From an uncultured Candidatus Saccharibacteria bacterium (GTDB taxonomy: Bacteria; Patescibacteriota; Andersenbacteria; UBA10190), in assembly GCA_964562905.1 (NCBI GenBank), contig CAZLVG010000001.1, forward strand, positions 2,297 through 66,296: DNA of 64,000 bases. Direction: 5' to 3'. Shown one piece after another: positions 5,294-53,547 of the stretch (position 1 is its first letter; every line of letters begins with the position of its first letter). The position numbers and the translations under genes are program-made. Under the pieces are notes generated by a model, which was given only the letters and a program-made list of their open reading frames with translations, searched no databases and was not told the DNA's origin.

Positions 5294-6619
5294 ATGAAAA
5301 AAGAGTCTCAAAAAACAAAGCCTTACCGCCTGGCTTTCGTGGGAGCCGGCTACGTAGGGCTGGTTTCCGGCACCTGCCTGGCGGAGGTGGGCCACAGCGT
5401 TATCCTGGTCGATAACAATAAAGAAAAAATAGCCCGGCTAAAGCGAGGAGGCATCCCTATCTATGAACCGGGTCTGGAAAGGCTGGTGCGCAAAAACGCG
5501 AAAGCGGGCCGTCTTACCTTTACCACCAACTTGCCGTCCGCCATCAAGAAGTCAGAGGTTATCTTCATCGCCGTCAACACCCCTCCCCTGCCAGACGGCC
5601 AGGCGGATCTGTCCTACGTGGCCGGCGCGGCGCGGCAGATAGCGCAGGCGGCCAACTCTTACAAGGTTATTGTGGATAAGAGTACGGTTCCCGTGCAAAC
5701 CGGCGAAAGAGTGCTGGAAACTATTAAGCAGCACAACCAAAAAACCGTTGACGTGGACGTGGTCAGCAACCCTGAATTCCTGCGGGAGGGCTCCGCCGTT
5801 GAAGATTTTCTCCAGCCTGACCGCATAGTGGTGGGCGTGGATAACAAACGGGCGGAGAAAATCATGCGTGCTGTCTACCGCCCCTTTAAAGCGCCGTTTA
5901 TCGTGACGGATGTGAAAAGCGCCGAACTCATAAAGCACGCCAGCAATTCTTTCCTGGCCACTAAAATCTCGTTCACCAACGCTCTGGCCCGCCTCTGCGA
6001 GCTGTCAGGCGCTAACATTGACCAAGTGGTTAAAGGCATGGGGCTGGACCAGCGCATCGGCCGCCACTTCCTCAAAGCCGGGCTGGGCTACGGGGGAAGT
6101 TGTCTTCCGAAGGACGTATCGGCCTTTATCTCCATAGCGAGGGAGCTAGGCTACAACTTCGGCCTGCTGAAAGAAGTTGCTAAAATAAACAACCGGACCC
6201 GCAGTCTGTTCATGCGTAAGATAAATCGGGCCCTGTGGGTTATTAAGGGCAGGACCGTAGCCGTGTGGGGACTGGCCTTCAAACCGAACACCGACGACAT
6301 GCGCAACGCGCCCTCCATAGAGATTGTCAACCAACTGCACGCTGACGGCGCCGCCATTCAGGCTTATGATCCACAGGCAAACCAGACAGCCAAAGCCGTT
6401 TTAGGCAATAAAGTGCGCTATAAGAAAAATATGTATGACGCCTTAAAGGGCGCCGACGCCCTGGTGATAGTAACCGACTGGGACGAGTTCAAGGAAGTTG
6501 ACTGGGACAAAGCCGCCTCACTGCTTGACAATCCTATCATCATTGACGGCCGTAACATGTATGAGCCCCAGGAGATGGAGAAGAAAGGATTGGTGTATCA
6601 CAGCGTGGGACGAGGATAA
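5294..6619 (+). CDS. ugd: UDP-glucose 6-dehydrogenase
   Basis: N-terminal Rossmann motif FVGAGYVGLVSG, catalytic-Cys region GGSCLPKD, and 441 aa, typical of the UDP-glucose/GDP-mannose dehydrogenase family. Confidence 0.9.
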   Translation: MKKESQKTKPYRLAFVGAGYVGLVSGTCLAEVGHSVILVDNNKEKIARLKRGGIPIYEPGLERLVRKNAKAGRLTFTTNLPSAIKKSEVIFIAVNTPPLPDGQADLSYVAGAARQIAQAANSYKVIVDKSTVPVQTGERVLETIKQHNQKTVDVDVVSNPEFLREGSAVEDFLQPDRIVVGVDNKRAEKIMRAVYRPFKAPFIVTDVKSAELIKHASNSFLATKISFTNALARLCELSGANIDQVVKGMGLDQRIGRHFLKAGLGYGGSCLPKDVSAFISIARELGYNFGLLKEVAKINNRTRSLFMRKINRALWVIKGRTVAVWGLAFKPNTDDMRNAPSIEIVNQLHADGAAIQAYDPQANQTAKAVLGNKVRYKKNMYDALKGADALVIVTDWDEFKEVDWDKAASLLDNPIIIDGRNMYEPQEMEKKGLVYHSVGRG

Positions 6620-6844: not shown

Positions 6845-7534
6845 TCAGGAATATTCGGAAAGCTTTCTGTGTGCCTCTTCCAACTGCTCCTTGTCATTGA
6901 CCGGCAGCCACCAGTCCGCTTCCACCACTTTTATTTTTTTACCTTTTTCCGCCATCATCTTCATCCATACGTCCGGAGTCTCATACTCCCCCCGGGCCGA
7001 AGGAGACACTTCCACCTCAAAGAAGCTCTGCTCCATCACCATCGCCCCGTTCCAGGCCAGATCCGACACGAACTCTTTCGGTTTTTCCACAGATTTGACC
7101 AGATACCCGCTTTCATCCGTAACCAGAATGCCCCAGTTTTCCGGATTGCTAACTCTTGACGCCAGCACCGCCAAGTCATACTGAACCAGCTCCCGCAGAC
7201 CCCGCGGCCCGAAAATATCATCCCCTACCATCCCCAGCCACCGGCCTTTGACCAGGTGCTTAGCCGCCCCAAAGGCGTGCGCCAAGCCCAGCTGTTCTTC
7301 TTGAACAACAAAAGTAATCGGGCGTCCTTCGTATCTCTTTGTTTTAAAATGTTCCCGTATAGCTCTTTCATGGGGGCCGCCGACAACAAAAATGAGCCGG
7401 TCTACCTCTGCCGGCAGCATGCGCAGCGCGTGCTCCACCACCGGCCGGGCGGCCACCGGCAACAACTGTTTCGGTCCTTCATAATACTTGGCCATCCGCG
7501 TCCCCTTGCCGGCCATCAGCACCACCGCCTGCAT
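6845..7534 (-). CDS. Sugar-phosphate nucleotidyltransferase (NTP-transferase family)
   Basis: N-terminal motif MAGKGTRM...PKQLLPV, typical of RmlA/GlmU-type nucleotidyltransferases. Length is 229 aa. Confidence 0.75.
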   Translation of the reverse strand: MQAVVLMAGKGTRMAKYYEGPKQLLPVAARPVVEHALRMLPAEVDRLIFVVGGPHERAIREHFKTKRYEGRPITFVVQEEQLGLAHAFGAAKHLVKGRWLGMVGDDIFGPRGLRELVQYDLAVLASRVSNPENWGILVTDESGYLVKSVEKPKEFVSDLAWNGAMVMEQSFFEVEVSPSARGEYETPDVWMKMMAEKGKKIKVVEADWWLPVNDKEQLEEAHRKLSEYS

Positions 7535-8990: not shown

Positions 8991-9086
8991 TTTTCAGGTG
9001 GAGGGCTAACCATACGCTATTTATTTCTCATTCCTTATCCACAGAAGAGCTCGCCATGAAGATTAAGTATAGCACGTTTTTTTTGG

Positions 9087-14886: not shown

Positions 14887-16209
14887 CTAATGTAGCAGCT
14901 TGCGTGCTACCTCCACGCGCCGCTTTACTTCCTTCTCAAATCCTTCTTCGCCCGGACAGTAATAAATATTTTCCTGTATTTCATCCGGACGGTACCGCTG
15001 TTTAACCACATGGCCGGGGAAATCATGAGGATATTTGTAACCTACGCCCCGGCCGTGCTTTTTCATGTCCTCCACTGGCGCGTTGGTAATATGTCCGGGA
15101 GGCCGGGCATTACCGTACTTTTCCACATCTTCCTTAGCCGCTTCCTTGGCCGCGTACACGCTGTTGCTCTTGGGAGCAGACGCCAGGTAAGTGGCCGCTT
15201 GCGCCAGGGCAAACTCTGCTTCCGGCAGTCCTACCCACTCCAGTGTTTGCGCCGCCGAGACTGCCACCATTAAAGAGTGCGGGTCGGCGTTGCCGATATC
15301 CTCGGAAGCGAAGATAAGCATGCGCCGCATGATAAATTTAGGGTCTTCCCCAGCCGCCAGCATACGAAAAAGATAAAACAGCGCCGCGTCGGGATCGGAG
15401 CCCCGCAGGCTTTTGATAAAAGCGGAAATGGTATCGTAGTGGACGTCTCCGGCTTTATCGTATTGAACAACGGTGTGTTGCGCGGCCGCTTCCACCTGCC
15501 GCCGGCCGATTTTACCTTCCCGCGTCGTTACTGCCGCTCTTTCAAGCACATTAAGCGCCCGGCGGGCGTCGCCTCCGGACATTTCCACCAACAGCTTCCC
15601 GGCCGCCGCCGATAAAGTAATTCCGGCATCGGCACCTTCGCCCAGCACAGACAGAGCGCGCTTTATTATCTTTTTCATAGCTGCCGGCCCCAACGCCTCC
15701 AACCGCACTACCTGCGCCCGGGACACCAAAGCCTTTATCACCTCAAAATAAGGGTTTTCCGTGGTCGCCCCCACTAAAGTAACCGTGCCCTCTTCCACGG
15801 CAGGCAGCAACACATCCTGCTGTGCCTTATTAAAACGGTGTATTTCATCCACTATCAGTACCGTCCTTTGGCCCAACCGCTGTCGGTTGCCAGCCGCGTC
15901 AATCACTTTCCGTAAATCCTTAACTCCGGCTGCCACGGCGCTTACTCTTTCCGGCGCTGCCTTCATTCTGTCCGCGATAAGGTAAGCCAGTGTGGTCTTG
16001 CCCGCCCCCGGCGGGCCCCATAGGATAAGCGATCCTGCCTGCCCCCGCTCCACGGCCCGGCGCAGCGCGGTGCCGGAACCCAATATCTTTTTCTGCCCCG
16101 CGAAGTCACCCAGCTTCCGCGGCCTGACCCGCGCGGCCAACGGCCGGCCCTGGCTTCGGTCGGAACTAGGCCAAAAATCATTATGTCGTTCTGCGGCAGT
16201 TCGCTTCAT
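14887..16209 (-). CDS. rarA: Replication-associated recombination protein A (AAA+ ATPase)
   Basis: Walker A motif [13 protein letters not shown]. The MgsA/RarA C-terminal region ([31 protein letters not shown]) is present. Confidence 0.9.
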
Positions 16210-16228
16210 ATCCTAAAAATACAAGTAA

Positions 16229-17794
16229 TCAGCGGTAACAGCGAACCGAGAATAAACTTTCTTTTTGGCTTACCTCCCGGAAAGATGCGTCGCCCGCCGG
16301 CTTCAAACTGCGATCGAGCACGTTATACACCAGACAGGATCCTTTTTGGACCGCTAGCGAACCGTACTCAACTGGAATGTCTTTATTGTCAATCAAACGG
16401 CGGTAAAAACCGACATCCGCCCAGTTAATACTTCCGTGCTTGTCATCCGACACAACTATTTCTTCCGGCCGCTGTCGCACGGCCGCCCGCAGCGCTTCCT
16501 TAAAGCCATAACCATTAAAAGCCTCCACGCTTTTGCCCGGATAAACCGTAAAATAGTTAGCCGTAAAAGCCGACGCCTCCAGCGCCAGTAAAACGAATAC
16601 GGCGGCAACCAATAATGTCTTCCCTCGGCTAAAAGTTTTCAGAATGTACGCCAGGCCATAACCGGAAACAATCAATATAATAAGCCCCATGCTCATGGTG
16701 CGCGTCACGTGTCCCGTGCCCGCGGTTAAGGTTAACGCCGCCGCGGTGGGCGCGGCGGCTAAGTTTAGCAGCAAAAACACGCCGTACCTATCCTTATCAG
16801 AACGTTTTTTCCAAAGAAATGCTGCCAGTCCCATCATAAAGAGCACAAAGACCGTTACCAATAACTCCCCTCCGTAGCCAATGGCGTGTCTTAGATTAGA
16901 GTCACCTTCCAAAAGCAAATAATAAGGGCCAAAATGACGGATGTAGTTAACAATGAAAGTCATAATTTTATACGGCCAATCCACGGCGGATGAATAAAGG
17001 TAAGTTATAGACTTAAAGCGGGCGGTCAGAGCGCCCGGGTGGGACAGCAGAAAATACAGGTAAGGCGTCACCGCGGCGGTAAAGGCCGCCGCCACCAGCC
17101 AGGCCTTCTTGATCCGGCGCCGACGCGCGTACACCAACACCCACGCCAGAAACATGGCCCAAGTCAAAAGCCGCCTCGGGGAATGGGTGTATATTGACAG
17201 GCCCATAAAAAGGCCGGCCAGCGCCTGGTACCATAAATTTCGTACGCCTCCGTTACGATGATACGCCAGGTACAAAAACAACAAGGCGTACACCACTACC
17301 GTCAACTCTGACACAGTTTCAAAGGCAACGCGCGACATAGTGAAAAACCACGGCAGAAAAGCGGCGGCGGCTAAAGTGTACAAAGTTACTATTCTGCTTC
17401 TGAACATCTGGTGCAGCAGAATGCCCGTCCCCACCCAAAAAGCCAGAAAAAATGCCGCGCTGGTAGCCCGCAGGGTAAATTCCGACGGTCCGAACAGATA
17501 AAACATCAGCGCGGCGCCGCATATATAAATCGGATTCTTGTACTCCCCGAACGCTTTGAAATACAAGGGGAGGAAGGCGCCGTGTTCATCCCGTCCGGTC
17601 TCGGCCACCAGGATTGCGTTATAACCAATGGAAGTCTCGTCCGCGTACAATCCCCTGGGAACACTGTCCAACTGCCACCCATGGACAAATAATGTTAACA
17701 GCAACAGCGCCAGTAAAGCCGCGCCGAACCATATTTTGCCGCTATTGAATATAGGCACCATCGGACTACTTAGTTCTTTAACCGTTCGTTTCAT
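16229..17794 (-). CDS. GT-C fold glycosyltransferase (GT39/PMT_2, ArnT-like) polytopic membrane protein
   Basis: Motif DETSIGYNA near the first periplasmic loop. More than 10 TM helices. Arrangement resembles ArnT/PMT_2. Confidence 0.7.
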   Translation of the reverse strand: MKRTVKELSSPMVPIFNSGKIWFGAALLALLLLTLFVHGWQLDSVPRGLYADETSIGYNAILVAETGRDEHGAFLPLYFKAFGEYKNPIYICGAALMFYLFGPSEFTLRATSAAFFLAFWVGTGILLHQMFRSRIVTLYTLAAAAFLPWFFTMSRVAFETVSELTVVVYALLFLYLAYHRNGGVRNLWYQALAGLFMGLSIYTHSPRRLLTWAMFLAWVLVYARRRRIKKAWLVAAAFTAAVTPYLYFLLSHPGALTARFKSITYLYSSAVDWPYKIMTFIVNYIRHFGPYYLLLEGDSNLRHAIGYGGELLVTVFVLFMMGLAAFLWKKRSDKDRYGVFLLLNLAAAPTAAALTLTAGTGHVTRTMSMGLIILIVSGYGLAYILKTFSRGKTLLVAAVFVLLALEASAFTANYFTVYPGKSVEAFNGYGFKEALRAAVRQRPEEIVVSDDKHGSINWADVGFYRRLIDNKDIPVEYGSLAVQKGSCLVYNVLDRSLKPAGDASFREVSQKESLFSVRCYR

Positions 17795-17835
17795 ACTCTG
17801 ACCTTACAACACCCGGCTGCCCGCGCCAATGTGGT

Positions 17836-19245
17836 ATGCTGGGGCCTAGCAAGTTTATGGCTCCAATTAATAAAACTTTTGCCGCGCTTCTCCTGGTAAT
17901 AACCTTGCTGGGTCTGGGCCTGCGGCTCGTACGCTATGACTCGGTACCGCCTTTTACCGAGACGGCCGATGAGTTTATCTATCCCTGGTACGGGATGTCG
18001 CTACTAAAAGAGGGTGTGCCTACCAGTTGGTCCAATTTTGCCGCTTATGAAGAATTTGAAGAAGTTGAAATATGGGGTCAATACTACCGCCTGGTGACTC
18101 CTTATCTGGACAAACCGCCCTTATATCCGCTGATCACCGGCGGCGCTGCGCTCATGACAGGAGCCTCTGCTTTTTCTGACGTGCGCCTTGCGGTATTAAG
18201 ACTTATACCGATAGCGTTGAGTGTAGTCACTATATTTTTGACTGGTCTTGTCGGACGGCGCTATTTCGACCGTAACACAGGTCTTTTGGCCGCTGCTTTG
18301 TACGCCACGATCCCAACCGTAGTTTTATCTAACAGACTTTCCGTCGCCGAAAACCTGCTAACCCCCCTCGTTCTGGCAGGCTTATTCCTGCTGGCCGGCC
18401 GGTTAAAGACAGAATTATCGCGCGCGGCCCTGATATTGCTAGGCTTGCTGTCGGGCCTGGCCGTTTTGACCAAACAAACCGGTCTGGCGCTGGCGGCGGT
18501 TTTTTGCTGCTTTTTTCTGTCGCGACGGCAGTGGAAAAGAGCTTTATTCATGGCCTTAGCCGCCTTGGCATCCCTGGAGATTTATTTTGCTTTCGCCGCC
18601 TATTATGACTGGCAGTTATTCGCCAGCGTTGTGCGTGAGTTCAGCGGCTATCACACCGCCGGCGCACCCGAAATAGCTTACGCGATTTTCCGCCTGCCCC
18701 TGGTCGGCCACGGCGGAGGCCTCTTCTTTGACGGCGCCGTGCTGGCCGGCTACATTCTGCTGTTTGCCTCTCCTTTTTGGCTGCTTAATGAACACAAAAA
18801 AGGTCTCTCCTATCTCCAAACGTCCCTGCTGCTTGGTTTTCCCTTTATTTATACGATTGTTTTGGGCCTTATGGAATCAGGACATAAGTCAGCCTACTTT
18901 TTCGGTTGGCACCTGTACCCTCTCTTTCCTTTTTTAACACTGTTACTGGCCAAGGCTATGCTGGACCTGTGGCAGCGGCCGGACATCTTAAAGGCGGCCT
19001 TCTTGTACCTTGTCTTGGGGTCATCCACTGTTAGTTTTCTTCTGTTCCTTTTTCCGCGTTTTCAAGACTGGTGGCAGTTTATTCTCACTGTTATGTTCGC
19101 GGCCGCCGCTGTGTTTTTTCTGTCGCCCCGCCCCAAAGACCGTCGCGCTTTGCTGACAGTCAGTTTTATCATTTTTATGGCCGTTAATATTACGACGGTG
19201 CTGTTCGCGTTCCACCTTTATCCCAGCGGGCCGCAGCCTCTTTAA
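17836..19245 (+). CDS. GT-C fold glycosyltransferase (PMT_2-like) polytopic membrane protein
   Basis: ADEF motif in the first loop and multiple TM helices. It is divergent from the previous GT-C gene. Confidence 0.6.
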   Translation: MLGPSKFMAPINKTFAALLLVITLLGLGLRLVRYDSVPPFTETADEFIYPWYGMSLLKEGVPTSWSNFAAYEEFEEVEIWGQYYRLVTPYLDKPPLYPLITGGAALMTGASAFSDVRLAVLRLIPIALSVVTIFLTGLVGRRYFDRNTGLLAAALYATIPTVVLSNRLSVAENLLTPLVLAGLFLLAGRLKTELSRAALILLGLLSGLAVLTKQTGLALAAVFCCFFLSRRQWKRALFMALAALASLEIYFAFAAYYDWQLFASVVREFSGYHTAGAPEIAYAIFRLPLVGHGGGLFFDGAVLAGYILLFASPFWLLNEHKKGLSYLQTSLLLGFPFIYTIVLGLMESGHKSAYFFGWHLYPLFPFLTLLLAKAMLDLWQRPDILKAAFLYLVLGSSTVSFLLFLFPRFQDWWQFILTVMFAAAAVFFLSPRPKDRRALLTVSFIIFMAVNITTVLFAFHLYPSGPQPL

Positions 19246-19254
19246 GCCGACTGC

Positions 19255-20889
19255 TTGACGCCGCCTATGCGCCCGCTTATCAGATGGATAGATAAGCACG
19301 CGGCAGTGATAATGGCCGCCATAGCGGCGCTTTACCTGGTTTACGCGGGCGCGTTGAGCGCGATGGATCACTTCGGCCTGCGCACCCAGCTGTCCGATCT
19401 GGGGCATATGGAGCAGGCTATTTGGCAGATAACCCAGGGGGACCCGGCCATGACACAGTCGGATCCCGCGCTTAACCTGCCGCGGATGCGGGTGCACGCC
19501 AATGTGATTTTTTATCTTATCGCGCCTTTTTACGCCCTTTTCCCCTCACCTGTCACTCTGTTGCTTCTGGGCACGGCCGCGGTGGCTTCCGCGGGCTTCC
19601 TGTTTTTTCTGCTGGCGCGCCATGTCTTAAACAGCCATTCGCTGGCGCTTCTCTTCGGCGTTGCCTTCCTGGCTAATCCGCTGGTCCAGGAAGCCAACCT
19701 TTACGATTTTCACCCCATAGTGCTGGCTTTCCCGCTTTTTCTGGCCGTCCTGCTGTTCCAGGAAAAACGCCAGTGGGCCGGTTATTGGCTAGCTTTGCTG
19801 CTGCTCCTGTCCGTCAAGGAAACCCTGCTGCCGGTGGCAGCCGCCATAGGCGTGTATGTGACCATCCGCTCCTCTAAAAAACACGGTCTTATAACCATAC
19901 TGGCCGCCGCCACGTACTTCTTCGCGCTAAGCGAACTGCTGCCGCTGGCAACCGGCTTCCCCGTGGCGGAGCTTCAGCCTAGATTTGATTATTTGGGCGC
20001 CACTCCCAAAGAAGCCCTGGTTAAGGCCTTGACCAGCCCGGGCGAGCTGCTGGGGGTAGTACTGCCACGTGATAAGTTAACCTATCTGGCCTATCTGGCA
20101 CCACAAGGCAGCTTCCTGGCCGTTCTTTCACCCCTGGCCGCCTTGTGGGCTCTGCCCCCCATTGCGTTCAACCTGCTTGACCTCCTTGGCTTCCAGGTCC
20201 GAATCACCGGCGCGTACCACTCCGGCCTGGTAATCACTGCCGCGTATGCCGCCGCTCTTTACGGACTGCGTTTTGTCAGCCGCCGGCGGCCTGGCTGGTC
20301 TCGCGGCCTGATAGGACTGTTTGTCCTGCAAGCGGCGGCTATCTCCCTGGTCATGAGCCCGACCCCTTACGGACTGCTGTCGTCTTGGCGAGACTTCCGT
20401 TTAAACCACGACTACGACAAATTTGCCGACATCGCCACTCTTATCCCTCCCCGCGCCGCTCTGTCCACCCAGAACGGCCCCGCCGCCCACCTGGCTGCCC
20501 GCGATATTGTTGTCAAATATCCCCATAACACCCAGGCTGTGGATTATATCCTGCTGCACGTACATGATCCCACCAACTGTAACAACGGGATGTTTTTTGC
20601 CGACAGCCCGTCGGTGGCTTTTCCATCATGGACCGGTAAGTATAAAAAAGAGACACTTGACCCGGCCTTCGCTGAAAACGATTTCGGGGTCTTGGCTTAC
20701 CGTCCGCCCTGGTATTTGTTTAAACGCGGCCACAACCGCCAGCTTAACGCTAAGGCGTACGAAAAAGCTATGAAAGACCTGCGCCGGTACCCGCCTTACG
20801 CGGTAAAGCGTCAGCTTAAGTGTAATTCCGTCGACAGGTTGCAGGAGCTATATGCCGAACAGTTGTCTCGTGTTGGTCTGGGTAGCTAA
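19255..20889 (+). CDS. DUF2079-like integral membrane protein (glycosylation-associated)
   Basis: N-terminal signature HFGLRTQLSDLGHMEQAIWQ, typical of DUF2079. The protein is polytopic and sits 9 bp after the GT-C gene. Confidence 0.55.
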   Translation: MTPPMRPLIRWIDKHAAVIMAAIAALYLVYAGALSAMDHFGLRTQLSDLGHMEQAIWQITQGDPAMTQSDPALNLPRMRVHANVIFYLIAPFYALFPSPVTLLLLGTAAVASAGFLFFLLARHVLNSHSLALLFGVAFLANPLVQEANLYDFHPIVLAFPLFLAVLLFQEKRQWAGYWLALLLLLSVKETLLPVAAAIGVYVTIRSSKKHGLITILAAATYFFALSELLPLATGFPVAELQPRFDYLGATPKEALVKALTSPGELLGVVLPRDKLTYLAYLAPQGSFLAVLSPLAALWALPPIAFNLLDLLGFQVRITGAYHSGLVITAAYAAALYGLRFVSRRRPGWSRGLIGLFVLQAAAISLVMSPTPYGLLSSWRDFRLNHDYDKFADIATLIPPRAALSTQNGPAAHLAARDIVVKYPHNTQAVDYILLHVHDPTNCNNGMFFADSPSVAFPSWTGKYKKETLDPAFAENDFGVLAYRPPWYLFKRGHNRQLNAKAYEKAMKDLRRYPPYAVKRQLKCNSVDRLQELYAEQLSRVGLGS

Positions 20890-21636
20890 CTCAACCCTAT
20901 CAAGCGGCACCCTTCTTAGTTCCGCTACTTTTCGAGCCACCAATTCCACATAGGCCGGCTCGTTGCGTTGCCCCCGATAAGGCTCCGGCGCCAGGAAAGG
21001 GCAGTCCGTTTCCAACAACATTCTGTCCAAAGGAACCACGCGGGTCGCCTCGGCCGCCTCCCCGGCATTCTTGAAAGTCACTACCCCGTTGAAAGCAAGA
21101 TACATGCCTAATTCAAGATACTCCTCCGCCTGCCGGCGGCTGCCGTTGAATGAGTGCATCACGCCTGGGGGCAGCTGGTCCTGGCTGTAAGAAGCCAACA
21201 GTTTGATGACTTCATCGTGCGCATCAATATCATCGCCGCTCCTTACATGAAAAACGATCGGCAGGCCATGCGATCGCGCCAGCGCCATAAAACCGGTCAG
21301 TGCCTTTAACTGCTTCGGCAAATTTCCCCCCCGATACAAGTCAATCCCTACCTCGCCCACTGCCTTAACCTCTTCTTCCCGCGCCAGCCCGCGCAGCCGC
21401 CTCCAGTCGCCCTCTTCCAAATCTTCCGCCTCGCTCGGGTGAACCCCCACCGTTGCCCCTACTCCCACACCCTGACCGCGGTACTGCCGCGCTAGACTAA
21501 TAGCCTTCTCGCTGCTCGCCACGCCCGTACCCACCTCAACCCAGCCTCCAACCCCGGCTTCCCGCGCCCTGCTAATAACCTCTTCCCTGTCACCGTCAAA
21601 CTGGGGAAAAGCGACGTGCGCGTGGCTGTCAATCAT
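20848..21636 (-). CDS. tatD: TatD family metal-dependent hydrolase
   Basis: Start MIDSHAHVAF, with the conserved His/Glu/Asp ligands of the TatD TIM-barrel family. Confidence 0.85.
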   Translation of the reverse strand: MIDSHAHVAFPQFDGDREEVISRAREAGVGGWVEVGTGVASSEKAISLARQYRGQGVGVGATVGVHPSEAEDLEEGDWRRLRGLAREEEVKAVGEVGIDLYRGGNLPKQLKALTGFMALARSHGLPIVFHVRSGDDIDAHDEVIKLLASYSQDQLPPGVMHSFNGSRRQAEEYLELGMYLAFNGVVTFKNAGEAAEATRVVPLDRMLLETDCPFLAPEPYRGQRNEPAYVELVARKVAELRRVPLDRVELATQTNTRQLFGI

Positions 21637-21637
21637 C

Positions 21638-21901
21638 CTAGCTCTCCCCCGCCCTTACTATCAGCCATAAATTCCTCACATACACCAATATACCCACACT
21701 CTGCCCCGCGATAAACACCGGATCCCTTATGTGTACAGCGTAAACCAGCAACCCCATGCCCCCCGCCAGGCTCAAATACCAAAAAGCTTTGGGTATCACC
21801 GACCGTCCCTGCTTCTCCGACACTACCCACTGCACAAAAAAACGCATAAAAAAGGCCGCCTGCGCCCCAAAACCCAGCCACAACCACAAATCTTCAGGCA
21901 T
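21638..21901 (-). CDS. Lipid-A-disaccharide synthase N-terminal domain (LAB_N) small membrane protein
   Basis: Signature W..LGF.AQA.FF.RF.VQW..SEK...S..P..FW..SL.G......Y......VF..GQ......Y.RN. This domain is typically coupled to polyprenyl-phosphate GT2 enzymes. Confidence 0.75.
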   Translation of the reverse strand: MPEDLWLWLGFGAQAAFFMRFFVQWVVSEKQGRSVIPKAFWYLSLAGGMGLLVYAVHIRDPVFIAGQSVGILVYVRNLWLIVRAGES

Positions 21902-22586
21902 ACTTTCCGAAGCCTTTCGCCCGGCGCACTTTAATCAAGCCCGCCGCCGCGCGCCATATCCTATTCCTGATACCGTATTTTGAACGCCCATGCCTCCTGG
22001 GAAAATGCCGCACCGTGTGCTGGGCAACCCTAAAACCAGCCGCTGCCATCAAGAAAGGGAAAAACCTGTGGGCCCCCTCGAAAGCATCAAGACAGGCTAC
22101 CACCTTCCGGTCAAATACCCGCAGCGGACAGCCAATGTCGCGAAAGTCGTCTTTCAAAACCAACCGCTGCGCCGCGTTAGCTATCCACGAAGACGCCTTC
22201 CTAACCAGTGAATCCCGCCTTCTTTCCCTCCACCCTACCACCGCGTCGTACCCCTCTTCCAGCCTTTTAAACATGGCCGGAATGGCAGCCACGTCGTCTT
22301 GGAGATCCCCATCCAAAGTAACTATTACCCTGCCCGCCGCCGCCCGAAAACCAGCCAACAAAGCCGCTGTCTTTTTCTTGTTATTCTCAAATCTAATGAC
22401 CCGCGCCGCGCCGTCTCCAATCTCATCCAAACGATTACAAGTGGCGTCACTCGACCCGTCATCCACAAAAATAACCTCGTACCCGCCGGCCAGCCCCATC
22501 CCGCTCAAAACTTTTTTTATCTGGTCAAAAAGCGGCTGCACCGAATCCTCCTCGTTATACACTGGAACCACCACGGAAATATCCAT
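21894..22586 (-). CDS. GT2 polyprenyl-phosphate glycosyltransferase (DPM1/GtrB-like)
   Basis: Start ISVVVPVYNEE and motif VIFVDDGSSD, typical of the GT-A fold dolichyl/undecaprenyl-phosphate sugar synthase family. Confidence 0.85.
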   Translation of the reverse strand: MDISVVVPVYNEEDSVQPLFDQIKKVLSGMGLAGGYEVIFVDDGSSDATCNRLDEIGDGAARVIRFENNKKKTAALLAGFRAAAGRVIVTLDGDLQDDVAAIPAMFKRLEEGYDAVVGWRERRRDSLVRKASSWIANAAQRLVLKDDFRDIGCPLRVFDRKVVACLDAFEGAHRFFPFLMAAAGFRVAQHTVRHFPRRHGRSKYGIRNRIWRAAAGLIKVRRAKGFGKYA

Positions 22587-22615
22587 ACCCTAATATAAAC
22601 ACCACTTCCCCGCTT

Positions 22616-23056
22616 ATGCTATCCTTCACTCACACCATCTTGAGTCTTCCCCTGGCCGACCTCTTCCACAATCCCGCCGCCATCTTCCTCGCCGCCTTCC
22701 TTCTCCACCTAGCCGCCGACGCCATCCTCCACTGGAACGTGGATCCGACCAGGCGGCCCTATCCCTACAAGTTCGTGGCTCTTGACGTGCTATCCGGCCT
22801 CGCCCTGGCCCTGCCCATCGCCGCCGGCCGCTGGCCAGTCCTGTCCACCCTGGCTGCCATTGCCGGCGGCAACGCGCCCGACGCCATTCACTCTTTGTGG
22901 TACATCTTTAAGCCCACCAAGTACAGCAAATATATTCATTGGCTAGAACCCTTCCTCTCCTTCCACAAAAAAATCCAGCGCGAGACCACCAGTGTCCCCC
23001 TCGGCCTAGCCTCGCAAATAATCCTCATCGCCCTGGCCCTTTCTCTCGTCTTATAA
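22616..23056 (+). CDS. Hypothetical small membrane protein
   Basis: Three to four hydrophobic helices and no recognised motif. Confidence 0.4.
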   Translation: MLSFTHTILSLPLADLFHNPAAIFLAAFLLHLAADAILHWNVDPTRRPYPYKFVALDVLSGLALALPIAAGRWPVLSTLAAIAGGNAPDAIHSLWYIFKPTKYSKYIHWLEPFLSFHKKIQRETTSVPLGLASQIILIALALSLVL

Positions 23057-23391
23057 TCCAAAACCCGGTACACTAATCCCGTGCCAAACAACAACAAACC
23101 CGCCACCAAAGGATGGCGTCCGCGAAGCCGCCGGCGAGCTAGCCGAAGCCGTTAAGATTGGCTTTGATCGCACGGCCACCAAAGACGATTTAGCGACACT
23201 TGACAAGAGAGTCGATGGCCCAGACAAGAAAGTTGACAATCTTGATAAGAAGTTCGGCAGACTCGCGCGCGGCCAAAAAGCCATGCTTGGCATTCTGGAC
23301 GAGAACAACAAACTGCCTAAAGAAATACGTCGTCTACCCGAACGCGTCGCTCGCCTCGAGCGATCAGTCTTCCACCGCTGATAACTCTACG

Positions 23392-24444: not shown

Positions 24445-24453
24445 GGTTAAATA

Positions 24454-25737: not shown

Positions 25738-25760
25738 GCCTTCAACTTCGCGCTTTAAAC

Positions 25761-27077: not shown

Positions 27078-27157
27078 GCCCTTAACTTACCAGTTTATGC
27101 TCCTCCACCTAAAGTAAACTGGCCGGCCTCCAAAAACAATGTTTACGTCCTGCGCCA

Positions 27158-27682: not shown

Positions 27683-27686
27683 GGCT

Positions 27687-29669: not shown

Positions 29670-29679
29670 ACTGTCAATT

Positions 29680-30435: not shown

Positions 30436-30447
30436 CTCTTCACCCCC

Positions 30448-41320: not shown

Positions 41321-43645
41321 ATGAGCAAAATATTAGTAACCGGCGGAGCAGGATTTCTGGGCAGCCATCTGTGCGACCGGCTAGTACAACGCGGAGATGA
41401 AGTCATATGTGTGGACAACTTTTTCACCGGCCAGAAAAGAAACATCACCCACCTGCTGAAAAACCCTTTGTTCGAGCTTATACGCCACGACATCGTGGAG
41501 CCACTGGCGGTGGAAGTAGACCAGATTTACAACCTGGCCTGTCCGGCCTCGCCGGTACATTACCAGCACAACCCCATCAAAACCATAAAAACTTCCACGG
41601 TGGGCATGGTTAACATGCTGGGGCTGGCCAAGCGCGTGGGAGCTCGGCTGCTGCAGACATCCACCTCGGAAGTTTACGGAAATCCCGCTGTCCACCCCCA
41701 GCCTGAAACGTATTGGGGGAACGTCAATCCTATAGGAACCCGCTCCTGTTACGATGAAGGCAAGCGCGTAGCCGAAACCCTGTGCATGGATTACCACCGG
41801 CAGAACCATGTTGATATTCGCATTGCCCGGATTTTCAATAGCATCTTAGCCAATGAAACAGTCTTACTATTCAACAACAAGCACATTCACACAGAGTCAA
41901 TAGAAAAATACGTCGATTCTCACCTAGCCTCGCGCCTGGATCCGAACCCGCCACGCGTACTGATCCCCACGTTTGATCCCAGATCATGCCGAACCCGCTT
42001 AGCAGAGGCAAGCGCAGTCACCAAACACCGATGCAGAACCGATTGTTATGAACTCTCACTCCGCTACGGCAGAAACGTCAAAGTCACTGGAGATCACAGC
42101 GTGTTCACCCGAGGACAAAACGGAAGGCCCACGGCAATACCAGTACGCCAGCTGAGTGTTGGTGATTACGTAGCCATCCCGGCAAAGCTGCCGGTAGTCG
42201 AGCAAAACCGCCAACGCGTAGAGCTTGGTGAAGCCCTGCTCCGGTCACTACCAGATACCGAATTATGGGACTACGCAGTACGTGCTACAACTCTTCAAAA
42301 AGTCATTACAGAACGGCGAAACGAAATCATAAAAATTATAGAAAAAAGCAGGCGATTTAACGCCGAACGGCAGCGCAATGCTTACACATGCGCCTACAAT
42401 AAATACCGACGAAGATCACTCCTGCCACTCTATGTGCTCAAACGTCTCCGCATTTCAGTACCCAAAGAAGGCAAAATTCGCGTGTACAAATCCGGCGCAC
42501 ACATCTGGCTTCCCGCCACCATCAATGTCACACCCGATCTACTGTGGTTGATCGGCCTTTTCATCGCGGAAGGAACATCTCACTTCCAGAAAGGAAAGAG
42601 CGCGTTTATATCCCTCTGCTCCGACGAGCACCTACTCAAACGAGCACAAAAAATTCTTGAAGCGCTTGGTTGCCATGTTGTGTATCGTCCTGCCTATGAT
42701 AATAAGGGACCGTCTATCTTTGCGCACTCAAAACTTCTGTACTTTCTGTTTGACCACGTCCTAGACATCTTACCCGACAAGCAGTTCCCAGCCTGGATTA
42801 TGCAACTACCACTCTCAAAAATAAAGCACGTCCTAGAAGGATACCGCGAGGGAGACGGCACGCACAGTGGTAAAAAAATAGGCAGCGAACTCTGTTTCAA
42901 CACTACGAGCAAAAACCTGGCAGACCAGTTAACCTATACCCTTCTACGCTTTGGCATTGTCGCTTCAGTTGGCAAGTACAACACTACCTTCAGAAAGCGC
43001 TATGAGAACCGGCGGTTCCCATTTTATAGAATAACTATTTGTGCGCTAGACAATTTCGATATACTCAGTTGGGACAGCAAAGTTCAACAAACCCTCAACG
43101 CCAAAAGAACTGGCGATATCGTGTGGTCAAAAATCAGAAGCATTAAACCAGTCGCCAGATCAGCCTACGTGTACGATTTCACCGTCCCAGGCTCTGAAAA
43201 TTTTATTGCCGGCAATGGGATATTTTGCCACAACACCTACGGTCCCCGTATGCACCCGGCAGACGGCCGCGTCGTCAGTAATTTCATCATGCAAGCTCTG
43301 GAGGAAGCGCCCCTCACGGTTTACGGAGACGGCAGCCACACCCGCTCTTTTTGTTACGTGGATGACATGGTAGAGGCTCTTACAAGGCTCATGGATCAAG
43401 AAAAGGAGACGGGGCCGGTTAATCTGGGTAACCCCGAAGAAACTTCCATGCGGGAGCTGGCCCGCCTAATCATAAAATTGACTCGCAGCCGCTCTCCCAT
43501 CTCCCGTCATCCCCTGCCGGCCGACGATCCCCAAAAACGGCGCCCCGACATAACGAAAGCCGGACAAATTATTAACTGGCGGCCGGGCACTTCCCTAAAG
43601 GCGGGTTTGCAAAAAACTATTGCTTACTTTAAGAGCTTGCCGTAA
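41321..43645 (+). CDS. UDP-glucuronate decarboxylase / UDP-xylose synthase-like extended SDR, interrupted by an in-frame intein (host protein ~309 aa + 465-aa intein)
   Basis: N-extein: [19 protein letters not shown]...YDEGKRVAE...RIARIFN. C-extein: [49 protein letters not shown]. The two exteins are contiguous in UXS/RmlB-like homologs (ARIFNTYGPRM). Confidence 0.85.
41840..43234 (+). mobile_element. Intein with LAGLIDADG homing-endonuclease domain, inserted in the UXS-like gene
   Basis: Block [11 protein letters not shown] (Ser1), block [12 protein letters not shown], two LAGLIDADG motifs ([11 protein letters not shown] and [11 protein letters not shown]), C-terminal blocks [22 protein letters not shown], and +1 Thr. 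The insertion point lies within the conserved RIFN|TYGPR substrate-binding motif. Confidence 0.85.
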
Positions 43646-52086: not shown

Positions 52087-53547
52087 TTACCGCCACGTGG
52101 AAAACCAGAACAGTTTTTCGTACAAATCATGCGGTAAAAAGAAGCCGTACGTTAAGGGACTGAACACTAAAAACATAGCCGCCGCCGCTCCCAGCAGTAC
52201 ATAATAATAGGGGGGCTGCTTCATCAAGCTCCCTTTTCTGAAAAACCCGGTTCCGTCCAACCAGAGCAGACCCGCCAGTAAAGCGAACAAAAGAGGCGTA
52301 AGGTAATGATAAAGAAACAGCGCCCGCGGTACGCGCGCCAAAGGTACATAAGAGATAATATAACCGGCCAGCGGAATGAAAACGGCTTTATTATAGCCGT
52401 CAGAACCTAACCTTTTCAGAGATTCCAATTTATAAGCCGCGAAAAAATCTCTTATTTGTTTACTCCGCCTGTACAGGAATGAATAACACATGCCAAGCAG
52501 TGAAATAATCAACAGAGCGCCTATGCTCCACCAGACAACCAGATTACCCAGAAAATAAATGGAGGCTACGCGGCCTTCACCGCCGCTTTGCGTCCAGTAA
52601 AAAACGGGGGTGCCGACATACGGCCAACTCCACCAGCGACTGGCATCCGGATGGGTAGCTTCAAGGTTGTAGTTAGCGTCAAACATGATCCGATGTAATT
52701 CTATCGTTTCTTTGACAAAAGTTACGGGCAGCCAACCTTCGTCCCACTGCGGTACCCGCCAGGCATCTCCCGGTCCGGACTGTGTGAGCAAAGCAAAATG
52801 CAGCGCCCAGCCTGCCCCGTAGACAGTCAGGCCGCTGGCCGCGATTAGCAGAGCAACTGCCAGATAACGAGCTAACATCTTGTAAGATGAGACATTAAGC
52901 ACGCGCCAGGCCAGTATTACCGCCAGCACACCCGCGGCCACCAAGCCGGTAAACTTCGCGCCTACGGCCAGTCCGGCCAAGGCTCCTGCCGCGCACGCGC
53001 GCCACGCCCATCTCTGCCAGTGAAAAGGACTTTTCCTGAATGATTTTTCCATCCCCAAGTAGGCGCTTAGACAACCAAAAACAGCTACCAGCAGCACGCC
53101 GTCCAGGGATATTACGCGATTTTGCACGGTCAGAGCGTTATCAAATATAACCATCATGCTCCCTAAAAAAGCTGCCGCCTGTCCGGCTCCCAACTGTCTT
53201 AACAATATAAAAATCACGAGCGGCAGCAACATTCCCATAAGCGCCGGTACGGCCCGCAGTCCGATAGGAGACACAGCACCGTACCTCTGCCCTATATTGG
53301 AAAACGACAAGTCTCCCTCATAACCAGCCAGTTTAGCGGCGCCCGCCACCAGCAGCTTGGCGTGGGGCGGATGGATATCAAAAAATCTCTCTCCCGTACA
53401 GCAGTAGGCCGTAACGAACTTTCCAAAATGAACCTCGTCAAAAACCACTTGCCGCGGATAGCTTAGCCACATAAATTGAGTGGCCGCGGCCAGCGCGAGG
53501 ATAACCAACAATAATTTGAACCGCTGCGACATAAGTACAGATATCAC
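52087..53547 (-). CDS. Protein O-mannosyltransferase family (GT39/PMT) GT-C glycosyltransferase
   Basis: Strong PMT signature VFDEVHFGKFVTAYCCTGERFFDIHPPHAKLL (loop-1 DE motif). About 11 TM helices. Confidence 0.8.
   Translation of the reverse strand: MISVLMSQRFKLLLVILALAAATQFMWLSYPRQVVFDEVHFGKFVTAYCCTGERFFDIHPPHAKLLVAGAAKLAGYEGDLSFSNIGQRYGAVSPIGLRAVPALMGMLLPLVIFILLRQLGAGQAAAFLGSMMVIFDNALTVQNRVISLDGVLLVAVFGCLSAYLGMEKSFRKSPFHWQRWAWRACAAGALAGLAVGAKFTGLVAAGVLAVILAWRVLNVSSYKMLARYLAVALLIAASGLTVYGAGWALHFALLTQSGPGDAWRVPQWDEGWLPVTFVKETIELHRIMFDANYNLEATHPDASRWWSWPYVGTPVFYWTQSGGEGRVASIYFLGNLVVWWSIGALLIISLLGMCYSFLYRRSKQIRDFFAAYKLESLKRLGSDGYNKAVFIPLAGYIISYVPLARVPRALFLYHYLTPLLFALLAGLLWLDGTGFFRKGSLMKQPPYYYVLLGAAAAMFLVFSPLTYGFFLPHDLYEKLFWFSTWR

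Follow-up and report, generated by a model that had tools for sequence, protein, structure and literature searches.

Genes at the locus

The window, meaning the whole 64-kb stretch of DNA analysed, contains a GT2 gene overlapping a small LAB_N gene, two divergent GT-C glycosyltransferase genes (GT-C1 and GT-C2), and genes for a DUF2079 membrane protein and a TatD-family hydrolase. Nucleotide-sugar genes and a protein O-mannosyltransferase homologue lie elsewhere in the window (Table 1). All of the ORFs named in a first-pass annotation of this DNA were recovered where it had placed them. Its observations are confirmed by the analysis below, and its interpretation is partly supported.

Table 1. 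Features of the window, with positions counted from its first nucleotide
Feature	Position	Strand	Size and evidence
UDP-glucose 6-dehydrogenase (ugd)	5294..6619	+	all three UDPG_MGDP_dh domains
Sugar-1-phosphate nucleotidylyltransferase (AglF/RmlA-like)	6845..7534	-	NTP_transferase 4e-20
GT-C1, divergent ArnT/PMT_2-like GT-C glycosyltransferase	16229..17794	-	521 aa; AlphaFold model and homologues
GT-C2, PMT_2-type GT-C glycosyltransferase, divergent from GT-C1	17836..19245	+	469 aa; PMT_2 9.2e-12
DUF2079 membrane protein, predicted GT-C fold	19255..20889	+	DUF2079 1.2e-46; 9 nt downstream of GT-C2
TatD-family hydrolase	20848..21636	-	TatD_DNase 1.9e-72; packed immediately behind LAB_N
LAB_N three-helix membrane protein	21638..21901	-	87 aa; PF07578 2.8e-30
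GT2 polyprenyl-phosphate sugar synthase (putative), catalytic domain only	21894..22586	-	230 aa; Glycos_transf_2 8e-29
UDP-glucuronate decarboxylase (UXS) with LAGLIDADG intein	41321..43645	+	Intein_splicing, LAGLIDADG_3
Bacterial PMT-type protein O-mannosyltransferase homologue	52087..53547	-	PMT 2.9e-39, PMT_4TMC 1.2e-34

The GT2 and LAB_N proteins

The best solved relative of the GT2 is ArnC (1e-29, residues 3-207 against residues 10-215 of 327), and other solved relatives are GtrB (1.6e-22) and archaeal DPMS (1.6e-17), in keeping with the first-pass assignment to the polyprenyl-phosphate sugar synthases. The alignment stops at about residue 215 of these solved enzymes, which are 320-370 aa long, and no hydrophobic or transmembrane (TM) segment is predicted in the GT2. 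It is thus a member of the ArnC/GtrB/DPMS family of polyprenyl-phosphate glycosyltransferases without their C-terminal membrane hairpin. Its scores fall below the NCBIfam equivalog cut-offs (ArnC, 122 bits vs. 529; PgfS, 113 bits vs. 500).

The proposed pairing of the GT2 with LAB_N is borne out by an 8-nt overlap of the LAB_N ATG with the GT2 stop codon, ATGCCTGA. A 27-sequence LAB_N alignment spanning phyla has 25 invariant columns and a motif set comprising Q14, R20, Q24-W25, E29, S34, P37, D60-P61 and R76-N77, and many of the conserved positions are polar residues in the helices. The only PDB matches of the LAB_N profile are SemiSWEETs, which are likewise about 90 aa long with three helices; at E about 0.06 the similarity is weak, and it is confined to helices 2-3. 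In the profile alignment, W41 of LAB_N falls on a Trp of the SemiSWEETs and G66-Q67 on a Gly-Asn pair; a Trp and an Asn near these positions line the SemiSWEET sugar pocket. However, LAB_N differs from SemiSWEETs in having its own motif set, and in a genomic context of glycolipid synthesis rather than sugar uptake. The LAB_N signature has been grouped with that of MPDU1 among the PQ-loop family signatures (PMC3281891).

A conserved two-gene cassette

A sample of 80 LAB_N loci, selected by LAB_N similarity to the query, was searched for GT2 homologues ending no more than 150 nt upstream of LAB_N on the same strand. Such a GT2 was present in 66 of the 80, from many phyla. Recurrence in so many unrelated loci is far beyond chance expectation. 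The GT2 proteins of these loci are 233-283 aa long after correction, all but two of the 66 are without a TM segment, and overlaps of 8 or 4 nt between the two genes are also present in other phyla. On this comparison, a TM-less GT2 with LAB_N is a conserved two-gene cassette across bacterial phyla, a new finding of this analysis; no functional study of the pair was found in the literature.

LAB_N is also better conserved than its enzyme partner, a second new observation. In the LAB_N core, 29 of 80 columns are conserved at 90% or more, whereas the GT2 has 42 such columns out of 227. Pairwise identity averages 60% for LAB_N and 47% for the GT2, and of 2080 genome pairs 98% have the higher identity in LAB_N (r = 0.74), although the LAB_N identities are inflated in this comparison because the loci were picked by LAB_N similarity to the query.

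The usual neighbor of the cassette, also a new finding, is a PMT_2 GT-C protein. PMT_2 proteins account for 22 of the 26 large membrane ORFs immediately downstream of LAB_N and for 21 of the 29 immediately upstream of the GT2 (43 of 55 when both flanks are pooled), as in a metagenomic locus with the order GT2-LAB_N-PMT_2 and in the Mesorhizobium locus L082 described below. The link extends to a GT-C::LAB_N fusion encoded in one MAG, likewise new. Across many phyla, at least 39 of the 80 loci have a GT-C immediately beside the cassette; such proximity is thus the norm, and comparative genomics argues strongly for a general link between GT2-LAB_N and GT-C proteins.

GT-C proteins of the window

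Profiles and model folds place GT-C enzymes within 5 kb of GT2-LAB_N, in support of the first-pass annotation. GT-C1 has no direct match in Pfam, NCBIfam or PDB sequences; most of its homologues carry PMT_2, and D52-E53 is invariant in the first outer loop of the family. Its AlphaFold model (pLDDT 90.3, pTM 0.91) predicts a GT-C fold with ArnT as the top structural match (Foldseek, 5ezm, E 1.5e-9, TM 0.59), followed by ALG12, Pmt4, STT3, PglB and AftA/B. GT-C2 has 1283 representative relatives, with a best identity of 45% and an N-terminal PA14 in some. In hhalign, GT-C2 gave 97.6% against the PMT_2 proteins linked to the cassette; against the GT-C1 family it gave 89%, in an alignment that superposes the DE motifs. 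Both GT-C1 and GT-C2 are remote from the cassette-linked PMT_2 proteins, and neither is specifically close.

The DUF2079 family has invariant H81 and E189 and a nearly invariant D48. For the AlphaFold model of the window protein (pLDDT 85, pTM 0.87), the top 21 PDB matches in Foldseek are all GT-C proteins (STT3, DPY19, ArnT, ALG12, PglB, ALG9). The DUF2079 protein is thus predicted to have the GT-C fold itself, so that the window holds four GT-C proteins and not the three first counted, of which GT-C1, GT-C2 and the PMT homologue are all real. This PMT homologue lies in a type IV pilus locus (two PilM, T2SSF, T2SSE and an N_methyl pilin-like protein), and is a possible further consumer of a lipid-linked donor. 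The first-pass annotation had also raised the alternative that the GT-C proteins are generic ArnT-type enzymes. None of the three beside GT2-LAB_N reaches a curated NCBIfam cut-off, for ArnT or any other family (GT-C1 and DUF2079 have no match, and GT-C2 has two far below threshold), and no ArnT_C domain is present.

Nucleotide-sugar genes

The ugd assignment holds, with 565 bits to the TuaD model and 473 bits to the NDP-sugar dehydrogenase subfamily. The nucleotidylyltransferase scores 133 bits with AglF and 122 bits with RmlA_long, both under the cut-off. The UXS-like ORF is interrupted by a 465-aa intein (nt 41840-43234; boundaries RIARIFN|S...HN|TYGPRM), and the spliced protein of 309 aa matches human UXS1 at 8e-126 and 423 bits, with the next family at 131 bits. 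The gene is accordingly a true UDP-glucuronate decarboxylase split by an intein; the dTDP-glucose dehydratase identity named as an alternative in the first-pass annotation was ruled out, at no more than 94 bits. The suggested link to xylose was not upheld: nothing ties UDP-xylose to the GT2, and ugd and UXS lie 15 kb and 19 kb away.

Synteny of the locus

A backbone of MgsA, TatD, a 150-aa ORF and AI-2E is kept in two syntenic contigs from related genomes (L007 and L088), with TatD at the matching place in both; because it is part of this conserved backbone, TatD is probably outside the glycosylation function. Of the three GT-C genes that occupy this slot in the window, L007 has only GT-C1 and L088 only DUF2079 (55% and 61% identical to the window proteins, respectively), and GT2-LAB_N is absent at this position in both contigs. 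Co-location may therefore be recent or coincidental. Within the window, GT-C1, GT-C2 and DUF2079 are on transcription units other than that of GT2-LAB_N, with TatD between. The cluster had been taken for one module; it appears instead to be a mosaic built in a variable genomic slot, and not an inherited unit.

Proposed function and comparison with known systems

The region is best read, with reasonable but far from complete confidence, as a set of genes for glycosylation beyond the cytoplasmic membrane via a lipid-linked single sugar, with LAB_N as the membrane subunit of the synthase. By homology to the model enzymes ArnC, GtrB and DPM synthase, the 230-aa GT2 would place one nucleotide-sugar-derived sugar on polyprenyl phosphate at the cytoplasmic face. 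Sequence and comparative genomics show that this enzyme, lacking the family's C-terminal hairpin, is made together with the 87-aa LAB_N. LAB_N, probably as a SemiSWEET-like dimer, would form the membrane subunit and may help to present or translocate the polyprenyl-phosphate-sugar to the outer face, a role long suspected for MPDU1, its distant eukaryotic relative. Such flipping of the donor is suggested by the weak SemiSWEET similarity, the high conservation of LAB_N and one fusion to a GT-C (see below). GT-C1, GT-C2, DUF2079 and possibly the pilus-locus PMT, which profiles and models place among the GT-C proteins, would then use the donor outside, with surface proteins or polymers as likely acceptors. 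A GT-C1 homologue elsewhere that has a short GT2 immediately behind it also speaks for this reading.

This arrangement resembles the ArnC/ArnT (with ArnE/F) and GtrB/GtrA/GtrC systems, which combine an inside GT2, a small membrane mover and an outside GT-C transferase, and which supply the best solved matches of the GT2 (ArnC, GtrB) and the best structural match of GT-C1 (ArnT). The small partners there are SMR-type (ArnE/F) and of the GtrA family. However, ArnC and GtrB have two C-terminal TM helices of their own, which are missing from the window GT2; its small partner is the PQ-loop-like LAB_N, and no equivalog model is reached. The galacturonosyl system of rhizobia, RgtE/RgtA-D,F (with LpxE), is a further parallel. 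Locus L082 of Mesorhizobium has the order GT2-LAB_N-PMT_2(547 aa)-PAP2(273 aa), with a TM-less GT2, and the published rhizobial layout is rgtE-rgtF(549 aa)-lpxE(271 aa) (PMC5644692). Given this match, which equates the L082 GT2 with RgtE by gene order and sizes only, the cassette probably includes the genetically studied bactoprenyl-phosphate-GalA synthase. A TM-less catalytic subunit needing a separately encoded membrane protein recalls DPM1-DPM2/3 with MPDU1, and Ppm1/Ppm2 with Pmt; the latter system also has its counterpart to the PMT-type GT-C of the window. LAB_N, a half-size protein of three helices with only weak SemiSWEET similarity, has no homology to DPM2/3 or Ppm2. MPDU1, a PQ-loop family member, is needed for GT-C use of Dol-P-Man and Dol-P-Glc (PMC3281891, PMC9169118). 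[quoted passage not shown]

Alternative explanations

LAB_N could instead be merely a passive anchor for a helix-less synthase, with the donor crossing by an unlinked flippase or spontaneously. This is a credible minority reading, given a GT2 without a TM segment that is translationally coupled to LAB_N, and the precedents of separate anchors for human DPM1 (DPM3) and mycobacterial Ppm1 (Ppm2). The peripheral enzyme LpxB of chlamydiae also carries LAB_N, at its N-terminus (NCBIfam PRK01021 match), where it would most simply serve as an anchor. Anchors tend to be poorly conserved, yet LAB_N surpasses the catalytic domain in conservation and has many polar or charged residues within its helices, and its sole structural relatives by sequence are transporters. 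In a Planctomycetota locus known from one MAG assembly (L031), moreover, LAB_N is fused not to the GT2 but to the GT-C, as a single PMT_2::LAB_N ORF followed by the GT2.

About equally credible is a coincidental neighborhood, in which the slot gathered independent envelope genes. The three GT-C proteins would use donors from another source, e.g. a different polyprenyl-phosphate or -diphosphate sugar, and GT2-LAB_N would serve another consumer, e.g. only the PMT or an enzyme beyond the window. In its favor are the contents of L007 and L088, a GT-C1 homologue elsewhere that immediately precedes a short GT2 different from the cassette GT2, and a more distant DUF2079 homologue that has no LAB_N nearby but adjoins a 309-aa GT2, a Wzx-type flippase and a nucleotidyltransferase. 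Against this stand the many phyla in which a GT-C adjoins the cassette, and the failure to find a second polyprenyl-phosphate sugar synthase among the ORFs scanned in the 64-kb window.

Ordinary modification of LPS or lipid A, of the ArnC/ArnT or RgtE/RgtF type, with a uronic acid or amino sugar derived from UDP-glucuronate, is distinctly improbable. The cassette does occur in such settings among diderms, as in the rgtE-LAB_N-rgtF-lpxE order of the Mesorhizobium locus L082. The cassette adjoins ugd, also present in the window, in four Rhizobiales loci, and a Thermoanaerobaculia cassette adjoins PagL, Wzy_C and TamB. However, the window GT2 averages 40% identity to 64 sampled cassette GT2s, with the rhizobial ones among its weaker, only distantly related matches, and neither an ArnT, ArnC or other equivalog nor an ArnT_C domain was reached. 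The window ORFs scanned include no UDP-GlcA 4-epimerase, LpxE, lipid A or outer-membrane gene, and the pilus locus has no secretin match. Lipid A is an unlikely acceptor here. Relatives of GT-C1 are found in archaea and in Berkelbacteria, which to our knowledge are without LPS.

Finally, a soluble GT2 acting on an acceptor other than a lipid carrier, with LAB_N functionally unrelated, is very improbable. The GT2 does lack the membrane part by which the solved members of the family are defined, and it matches the 228-aa soluble structure 6p61 (E 7e-8). However, the matches to ArnC and GtrB are the best, with a lead of more than 20 orders of magnitude, and extend over the entire catalytic domain into the interface-helix region; dozens of phyla keep both the LAB_N pairing and the GT-C at its flank.

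A proposed split polyprenyl-phosphate sugar synthase

The ORFs reported in the first-pass annotation were all recovered at the positions assigned to them there, and are collected in the table below with further features of the window. The GT2 protein is homologous along its full length to solved members of the ArnC/GtrB/DPMS group, and corresponds to their GT-A catalytic domain. The closest solved structure is ArnC, the undecaprenyl-phosphate Ara4FN transferase (1e-29; residues 3-207 aligned with ArnC 10-215), followed by Synechocystis GtrB (1.6e-22; GtrB 27-240) and an archaeal dolichol-phosphate mannose synthase (1.6e-17). The acidic nucleotide-sugar/metal motifs are present in the translation as FVDDGSSD and TLDGDLQD. 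By homology, the protein is a predicted polyprenyl-phosphate sugar synthase domain.

The alignments end near residue 215 of the solved enzymes, which are themselves 320-370 aa long. The GT2 chain stops at residue 230, contains zero hydrophobic segments and lacks the C-terminal transmembrane hairpin. It therefore comprises the catalytic domain and the start of the interface helices, without the membrane hairpin of the family. The protein scores below every NCBIfam equivalog cut-off (ArnC, 122 bits against 529; PgfS, 113 against 500; PpgS, 51 against 370), so that these models assign no sugar to it.

Features of the window, with family assignments
Feature	Position (nt)	Strand	Assignment
tRNA	3945-4028		Rfam match
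ugd	5294-6619	+	UDP-glucose 6-dehydrogenase, confirmed
Sugar-1-phosphate nucleotidylyltransferase	6845-7534	-	AglF/RmlA-like; adjoins ugd
473-aa cysteine-rich protein	7569-8990		
1115-aa surface protein	9087-12434		FG-GAP/PKD/CarboxypepD_reg
GT-C1	16229-17794	-	ArnT-like GT-C model; D52-E53 motif
GT-C2	17836-19245	+	PMT_2 (PF13231), 9e-12, 45.9 bits against a gathering score of 26.1
DUF2079	19255-20889	+	Pfam, 1e-46, 160 bits; starts 9 nt after GT-C2
TatD hydrolase	20848-21636	-	Between DUF2079 and LAB_N
LAB_N	21638-21901	-	PF07578 end to end, 3e-30
GT2	21894-22586	-	230 aa; Glycos_transf_2, 8e-29
tmRNA	38459-38861		Rfam match, 97.5 bits
UXS with intein	41321-43645	+	774-aa ORF; intein at nt 41840-43234
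470-aa ORF	50652-52064		
PMT and PMT_4TMC protein	52087-53547	-	2.9e-39 and 1.2e-34; type IV pilus locus

The LAB_N protein

The ATG of the LAB_N gene overlaps the GT2 stop codon by 8 nt (ATGCCTGA). Its product covers positions 1-71 of the 71-position PF07578 model, with 104.7 bits against a gathering score of 26.7. The public annotation of this gene (database protein P0001) gives only 69 aa, which is too short and truncates the first helix; the annotated start is considered wrong because the conserved residues of the family alignment begin at W6 of the 87-aa ORF.

In a cross-phylum alignment of 27 sequences, 25 of the 87 positions are invariant, many of them polar and located within predicted helices (Q14, R20, Q24, W25, E29, S34, P37, W41, S44, Y54, P61, Q67, Y74, R76 and N77). 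Loop 1 has a conserved motif, SE-x3-SVIP. Across 64 loci and the window, mean pairwise identity is 60% for the LAB_N core as opposed to 47% for the GT2 catalytic domain, LAB_N identity exceeds that of the partner GT2 in 98% of 2080 pairs, and 36% of LAB_N columns are at least 90% conserved as opposed to 18.5% of GT2 columns, in a comparison that favours LAB_N because the loci were picked for how closely their LAB_N resembles the query. LAB_N and GT2 distances are correlated (r = 0.74).

LAB_N presumably belongs to the PQ-loop/SemiSWEET clan, a placement taken from the literature, where its signature appears alongside that of MPDU1 among the PQ-loop signatures (PMC3281891). A search of the PDB with the LAB_N profile returned just two matches, the SemiSWEETs 9kon and 4qnd, which are weak (E 0.06-0.07) and cover helices 2-3. 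In this weak alignment, W41 is matched with a SemiSWEET tryptophan and G66-Q67 with a Gly-Asn pair. The sugar pocket of SemiSWEETs is lined by a Trp and an Asn, which are possibly the same as those aligned with LAB_N. The distribution of charges (K30, R33 and K38 in loop 1, and basic C-tails in homologues) predicts, by the positive-inside rule, that the N-terminus lies outside and the C-terminus inside.

In human cells, MPDU1 is needed for the use of Dol-P-Man and Dol-P-Glc by a mechanism that is unknown, and glycolipid scrambling has been demonstrated for CLPTM1L, which is also a PQ-loop protein (PMC9169118). The literature under PF07578 and related identifiers yielded no functional study of LAB_N, a search on SemiSWEETs and undecaprenyl gave none either, and nothing on LAB_N was found in the literature on Bordetella lgmA-D.

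The cassette in other genomes

Proteins consisting of LAB_N only, 85-125 aa in length, are abundant, with 449 database matches at 55-75% identity from Proteobacteria, Acidobacteriota and even one Altiarchaeota MAG. Scanning a single genome of each species gave at least 600 LAB_N matches, and the best 80 loci were kept, a sample that is biased towards similarity. The hosts of these 80 loci include Alpha-, Gamma- and 'Delta'-proteobacteria, Acidobacteriota, Gemmatimonadota, Nitrospirota, Nitrospinota, Campylobacterota, Planctomycetota, Elusimicrobiota, Omnitrophota and Victivallis.

In 66 of the 80 loci, LAB_N is preceded on its own strand by a homologue of the window GT2 that ends no more than 150 nt away, often with start/stop overlaps of 4 or 8 nt; several of the 14 exceptions lie at contig ends or have a GT2 just downstream. 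Once over-long ORF calls are corrected, the cassette GT2s are 233-283 aa long, and no transmembrane segment is predicted in 64 of the 66. Large membrane ORFs beside the cassette (at least 350 aa and at least 7 transmembrane segments) number 55, from 51 loci. PMT_2 was detected in 22 of the 26 located directly downstream of LAB_N and in 21 of the 29 directly upstream of GT2, which places a GT-C right beside the cassette in at least 39 of the 80 loci. In a metagenomic locus, L091, the order is GT2 (242 aa), LAB_N (103 aa) and PMT_2 (469 aa). As judged from gene order and sequence, the window GT2 has no membrane anchor of its own and is translated together with LAB_N, the pair forming a cassette normally found beside a GT-C. 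The combination of a TM-less GT2, LAB_N and a GT-C is a widespread three-part variant for which no functional description was found.

A single natural fusion was detected, in one Planctomycetota MAG (L031). Here, an uninterrupted 715-aa ORF (8147-10294) encodes a PMT_2 GT-C, with 11 predicted transmembrane segments and a soluble domain of about 130 aa, followed by a C-terminal LAB_N; the TM-less GT2 comes after it (10499-11233). The predicted LAB_N topology is consistent with this fusion. In a Methylobrevis locus (L067, 8317-9948), a PAP2-GT2 fusion precedes LAB_N. An apparent GT2-LAB_N fusion in a further locus (L021) was rejected and not counted, as it stems from a frameshifted long-read assembly with the middle of the GT2 in another frame.

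One locus resembles a characterized system. In Mesorhizobium sp. 65-26 (L082, 9028-12789), the order is GT2, LAB_N, PMT_2 (547 aa) and an lpxE-like PAP2 protein (273 aa), which matches the published Mesorhizobium loti arrangement of rgtE, rgtF (549 aa) and lpxE (271 aa) (PMC5644692). By gene order and sizes, the L082 GT2 is probably RgtE, the bactoprenyl-phosphate galacturonate synthase. The LAB_N gene sits between the probable rgtE and rgtF, and mention of it was not found in the rgt literature consulted. Of the components of an Rgt system the window has only ugd; neither a PAP2 domain nor a 4-epimerase was found among the window ORFs scanned. In four Rhizobiales loci, including Brucella (L023, L069, L073 and L078), ugd lies beside the cassette; these genes encode proteins of 436-445 aa that match the window Ugd at about 1e-116, and three of the four are immediately adjacent and convergent. 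This proximity is a hint that these Rhizobiales may use a uronic-acid donor.

GT-C proteins of the window

The three GT-C enzymes initially proposed for the window are present, including the one in the pilus locus, but the count rises to four when DUF2079 is included. Profile assignment succeeded with PMT_2 for GT-C2 and PMT for the pilus-locus protein, but not for GT-C1, which has no match in Pfam, NCBIfam or PDB sequence searches, PMT_2 included. Most GT-C1 homologues have PMT_2. Direct PDB sequence searches gave no usable match for GT-C1, for GT-C2 or for the GT-C1 family profile, and the GT-C fold was therefore established by modelling.

The AlphaFold model of GT-C1 (pLDDT 90.3, pTM 0.91) has ArnT as its best Foldseek match (E 1.5e-9, TM 0.59, with 13-14% identity in the structural alignment), followed by ALG12, Pmt4, STT3/PglB and AftA/B; its 33 best matches, through E 0.012, are all GT-C proteins. 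The Asp-Glu pair D52-E53, in the first outer loop, is invariant in an alignment of 38 sequences. GT-C1 and GT-C2 are remote homologues (hhalign, 89%) with aligned DE motifs, and the corresponding loop-1 motif of the pilus-locus PMT is VVFDEV (hhalign). For DUF2079 (model pLDDT 85, pTM 0.87), the 21 best PDB matches are GT-C proteins only (E 1e-5 to 2e-3, TM 0.36-0.45), whereas a profile search against the PDB gave no more than a weak match to GPI mannosyltransferase 1 (E 0.07). On its predicted structure, DUF2079 should be counted as the third GT-C-fold protein of the cluster. A literature search on DUF2079 (PF09852) found no paper.

The concern that these might be generic ArnT-type enzymes is not borne out, in that Pfam and NCBIfam searches of GT-C1, GT-C2 and DUF2079 gave neither an ArnT equivalog nor ArnT_C. 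The pilus-locus PMT likewise falls below the NCBIfam Pmt equivalog (26.7 bits against 800).

The GT-C2 family comprises 1283 representative clusters, although a scan of JGI metagenome contigs found no close relatives of GT-C2. An N-terminal PA14 carbohydrate-binding domain is present in 5 of the 10 relatives of 665-814 aa that were scanned (database proteins P0307, P0316, P0317, P0330 and P0375), which suggests that part of the family may act on glycan acceptors. The N-terminal extension of about 220 aa in many GT-C2 relatives had been considered as a fused GT2, and this was rejected since the extension is PA14. Neither GT-C1 nor GT-C2 stands out as the cognate GT-C of the cassette, both being remote from the cassette-linked PMT_2 proteins.

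Gene order in related genomes

Two contigs, L007 and L088, have the backbone of the window (14887-33375 compared). In L007, which encodes a GT-C1 that is 55% identical, the order is AI-2E, 150-aa gene, TatD and GT-C1. In L088, with a DUF2079 that is 61% identical, it is MgsA, DUF2079, TatD, 150-aa gene, AI-2E, M16, and further on a class II tRNA synthetase (tRNA-synt_2b), a 174-aa gene, DUF11, RecO and IleRS. The GT2-LAB_N pair is absent between TatD and the 150-aa gene in both contigs. The slot between MgsA/RarA and TatD thus varies among the three genomes, containing GT-C1 alone, DUF2079 alone, or GT-C1, GT-C2 and DUF2079 together, and among these genomes GT2-LAB_N and GT-C2 have so far been seen only in the window. 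This slot appears to be a small variable envelope-glycosylation region within a syntenic block of housekeeping genes, and the particular gene combination of the window is not inherited as a unit. Composition gave no sign of a foreign origin for the cassette. In other genomic settings, a short GT2 of a different kind comes after a GT-C1 homologue, together with two further GT-C-like genes, and a DUF2079 homologue adjoins a 309-aa GT2, a Wzx-type flippase and a nucleotidyltransferase; these neighbourhoods indicate that both families are habitually tied to lipid-carrier glycosylation.

Proposed mechanism and alternatives

The overall scheme that is favoured, and that we regard as reasonably likely, is a split synthase with LAB_N as its membrane subunit, feeding GT-C enzymes. 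LAB_N, likely as a SemiSWEET-like dimer, would be the membrane subunit of the synthase and would help to bring the lipid-linked sugar to the outer face and pass it to the GT-C. The donor would then be used on surface proteins or polymers by GT-C1, GT-C2 and DUF2079, and perhaps also by the PMT of the pilus locus. A specific role of LAB_N in translocation is doubtful. Such a system would work like ArnC/ArnT, GtrB/GtrC, RgtE/RgtF and Ppm1/Pmt; it would differ from them in having a split synthase and a small partner of the PQ-loop/SemiSWEET type rather than ArnE/F or GtrA.

One alternative is that LAB_N serves merely as an anchor for the GT2. Separate anchors have precedents in DPM3 and Ppm2, but LAB_N is conserved, has polar residues in its helices and is fused to a GT-C rather than to a GT2, all of which argues against so limited a role, and this alternative is on the unlikely side. 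Coincidental neighbourhood within a variable slot is supported by the related contigs L007 and L088; it is weakened by the adjacency of cassette and GT-C across phyla, and is on the unlikely side. An ordinary LPS/lipid A modification system, an explanation that does hold for the cassette in diderm bacteria, is improbable here: the window proteins lack equivalog matches, no LPS or outer-membrane genes were found among the ORFs scanned in the 64 kb, no secretin match was found among the pilus-locus ORFs scanned, and GT-C1 has relatives in archaea and Berkelbacteria. Action of the GT2 on something other than a lipid carrier is very improbable.

A more ambitious form of the split-synthase scheme, which is speculative, is that LAB_N proteins are bacterial half-size counterparts of MPDU1, acting as a SemiSWEET-like dimer and an obligatory subunit of a split polyprenyl-phosphate-sugar synthase that moves or hands the lipid-linked monosaccharide directly to a GT-C. 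Synthase, LAB_N and GT-C would be one three-part machine that gene transfer has distributed among bacterial phyla, here feeding up to four GT-Cs including that of the pilus locus. How lipid-linked monosaccharides such as Dol-P-Man, Dol-P-Glc and Und-P-sugars cross the membrane has been an open question for many years. If the proposal is true, LAB_N, as a small and highly conserved relative translationally coupled to a synthase, beside a GT-C and in one instance fused with it, would lend itself to genetic, reconstitution and structural work as a simple system. The proposal would further assign a function to a widespread Pfam family with the misleading name 'lipid A biosynthesis N-terminal', and would identify an overlooked gene within the rhizobial rgtE-rgtF locus.

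Nucleotide sugars and candidate targets

The UXS ORF encodes an SDR protein split by a 465-aa LAGLIDADG homing-endonuclease intein (residues 174-638). The insertion site lies within the conserved RIARIFN|TYGPRM motif, and the intein ends are Ser1 ... His-Asn | Thr+1. Sugar-nucleotide enzymes seem unusual hosts for an intein. After splicing, the protein has 309 aa and its best match is human UXS1 at 8e-126 (423 bits, residues 3-306); the score drops to 131 bits for the next family and to at most 94 for dTDP-glucose dehydratases. The gene, formerly described as UXS-like, is thus a true UXS and not a dTDP-glucose dehydratase. The only Rfam matches in the window are the tmRNA and the single tRNA.

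The window encodes the route from Glc-1-P through UDP-Glc and UDP-GlcA to UDP-Xyl. The nucleotide-sugar route of the first-pass annotation is therefore encoded, but nothing links it to the GT2. Among candidate sugars, mannose would suit the PMT, whereas the Rgt parallel and ugd would fit a uronic acid. Xylose is possible, but a bacterial polyprenyl-phosphate-xylose donor would be without precedent to our knowledge. Four GT-Cs and a UDP-GlcA/UDP-Xyl route suggest heavy surface glycosylation in the source organism.

The PMT gene is accompanied by two PilM, a PilC-like T2SSF, a PilB-like T2SSE and an N_methyl pilin-like protein, and is followed by the 470-aa ORF. This ORF and the 473-aa cysteine-rich protein each have one helix, at the N-terminus, and match no known family. 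The cysteine-rich protein adjoins the 1115-aa FG-GAP/PKD surface protein, and these two neighbours are candidate glycosylation targets.
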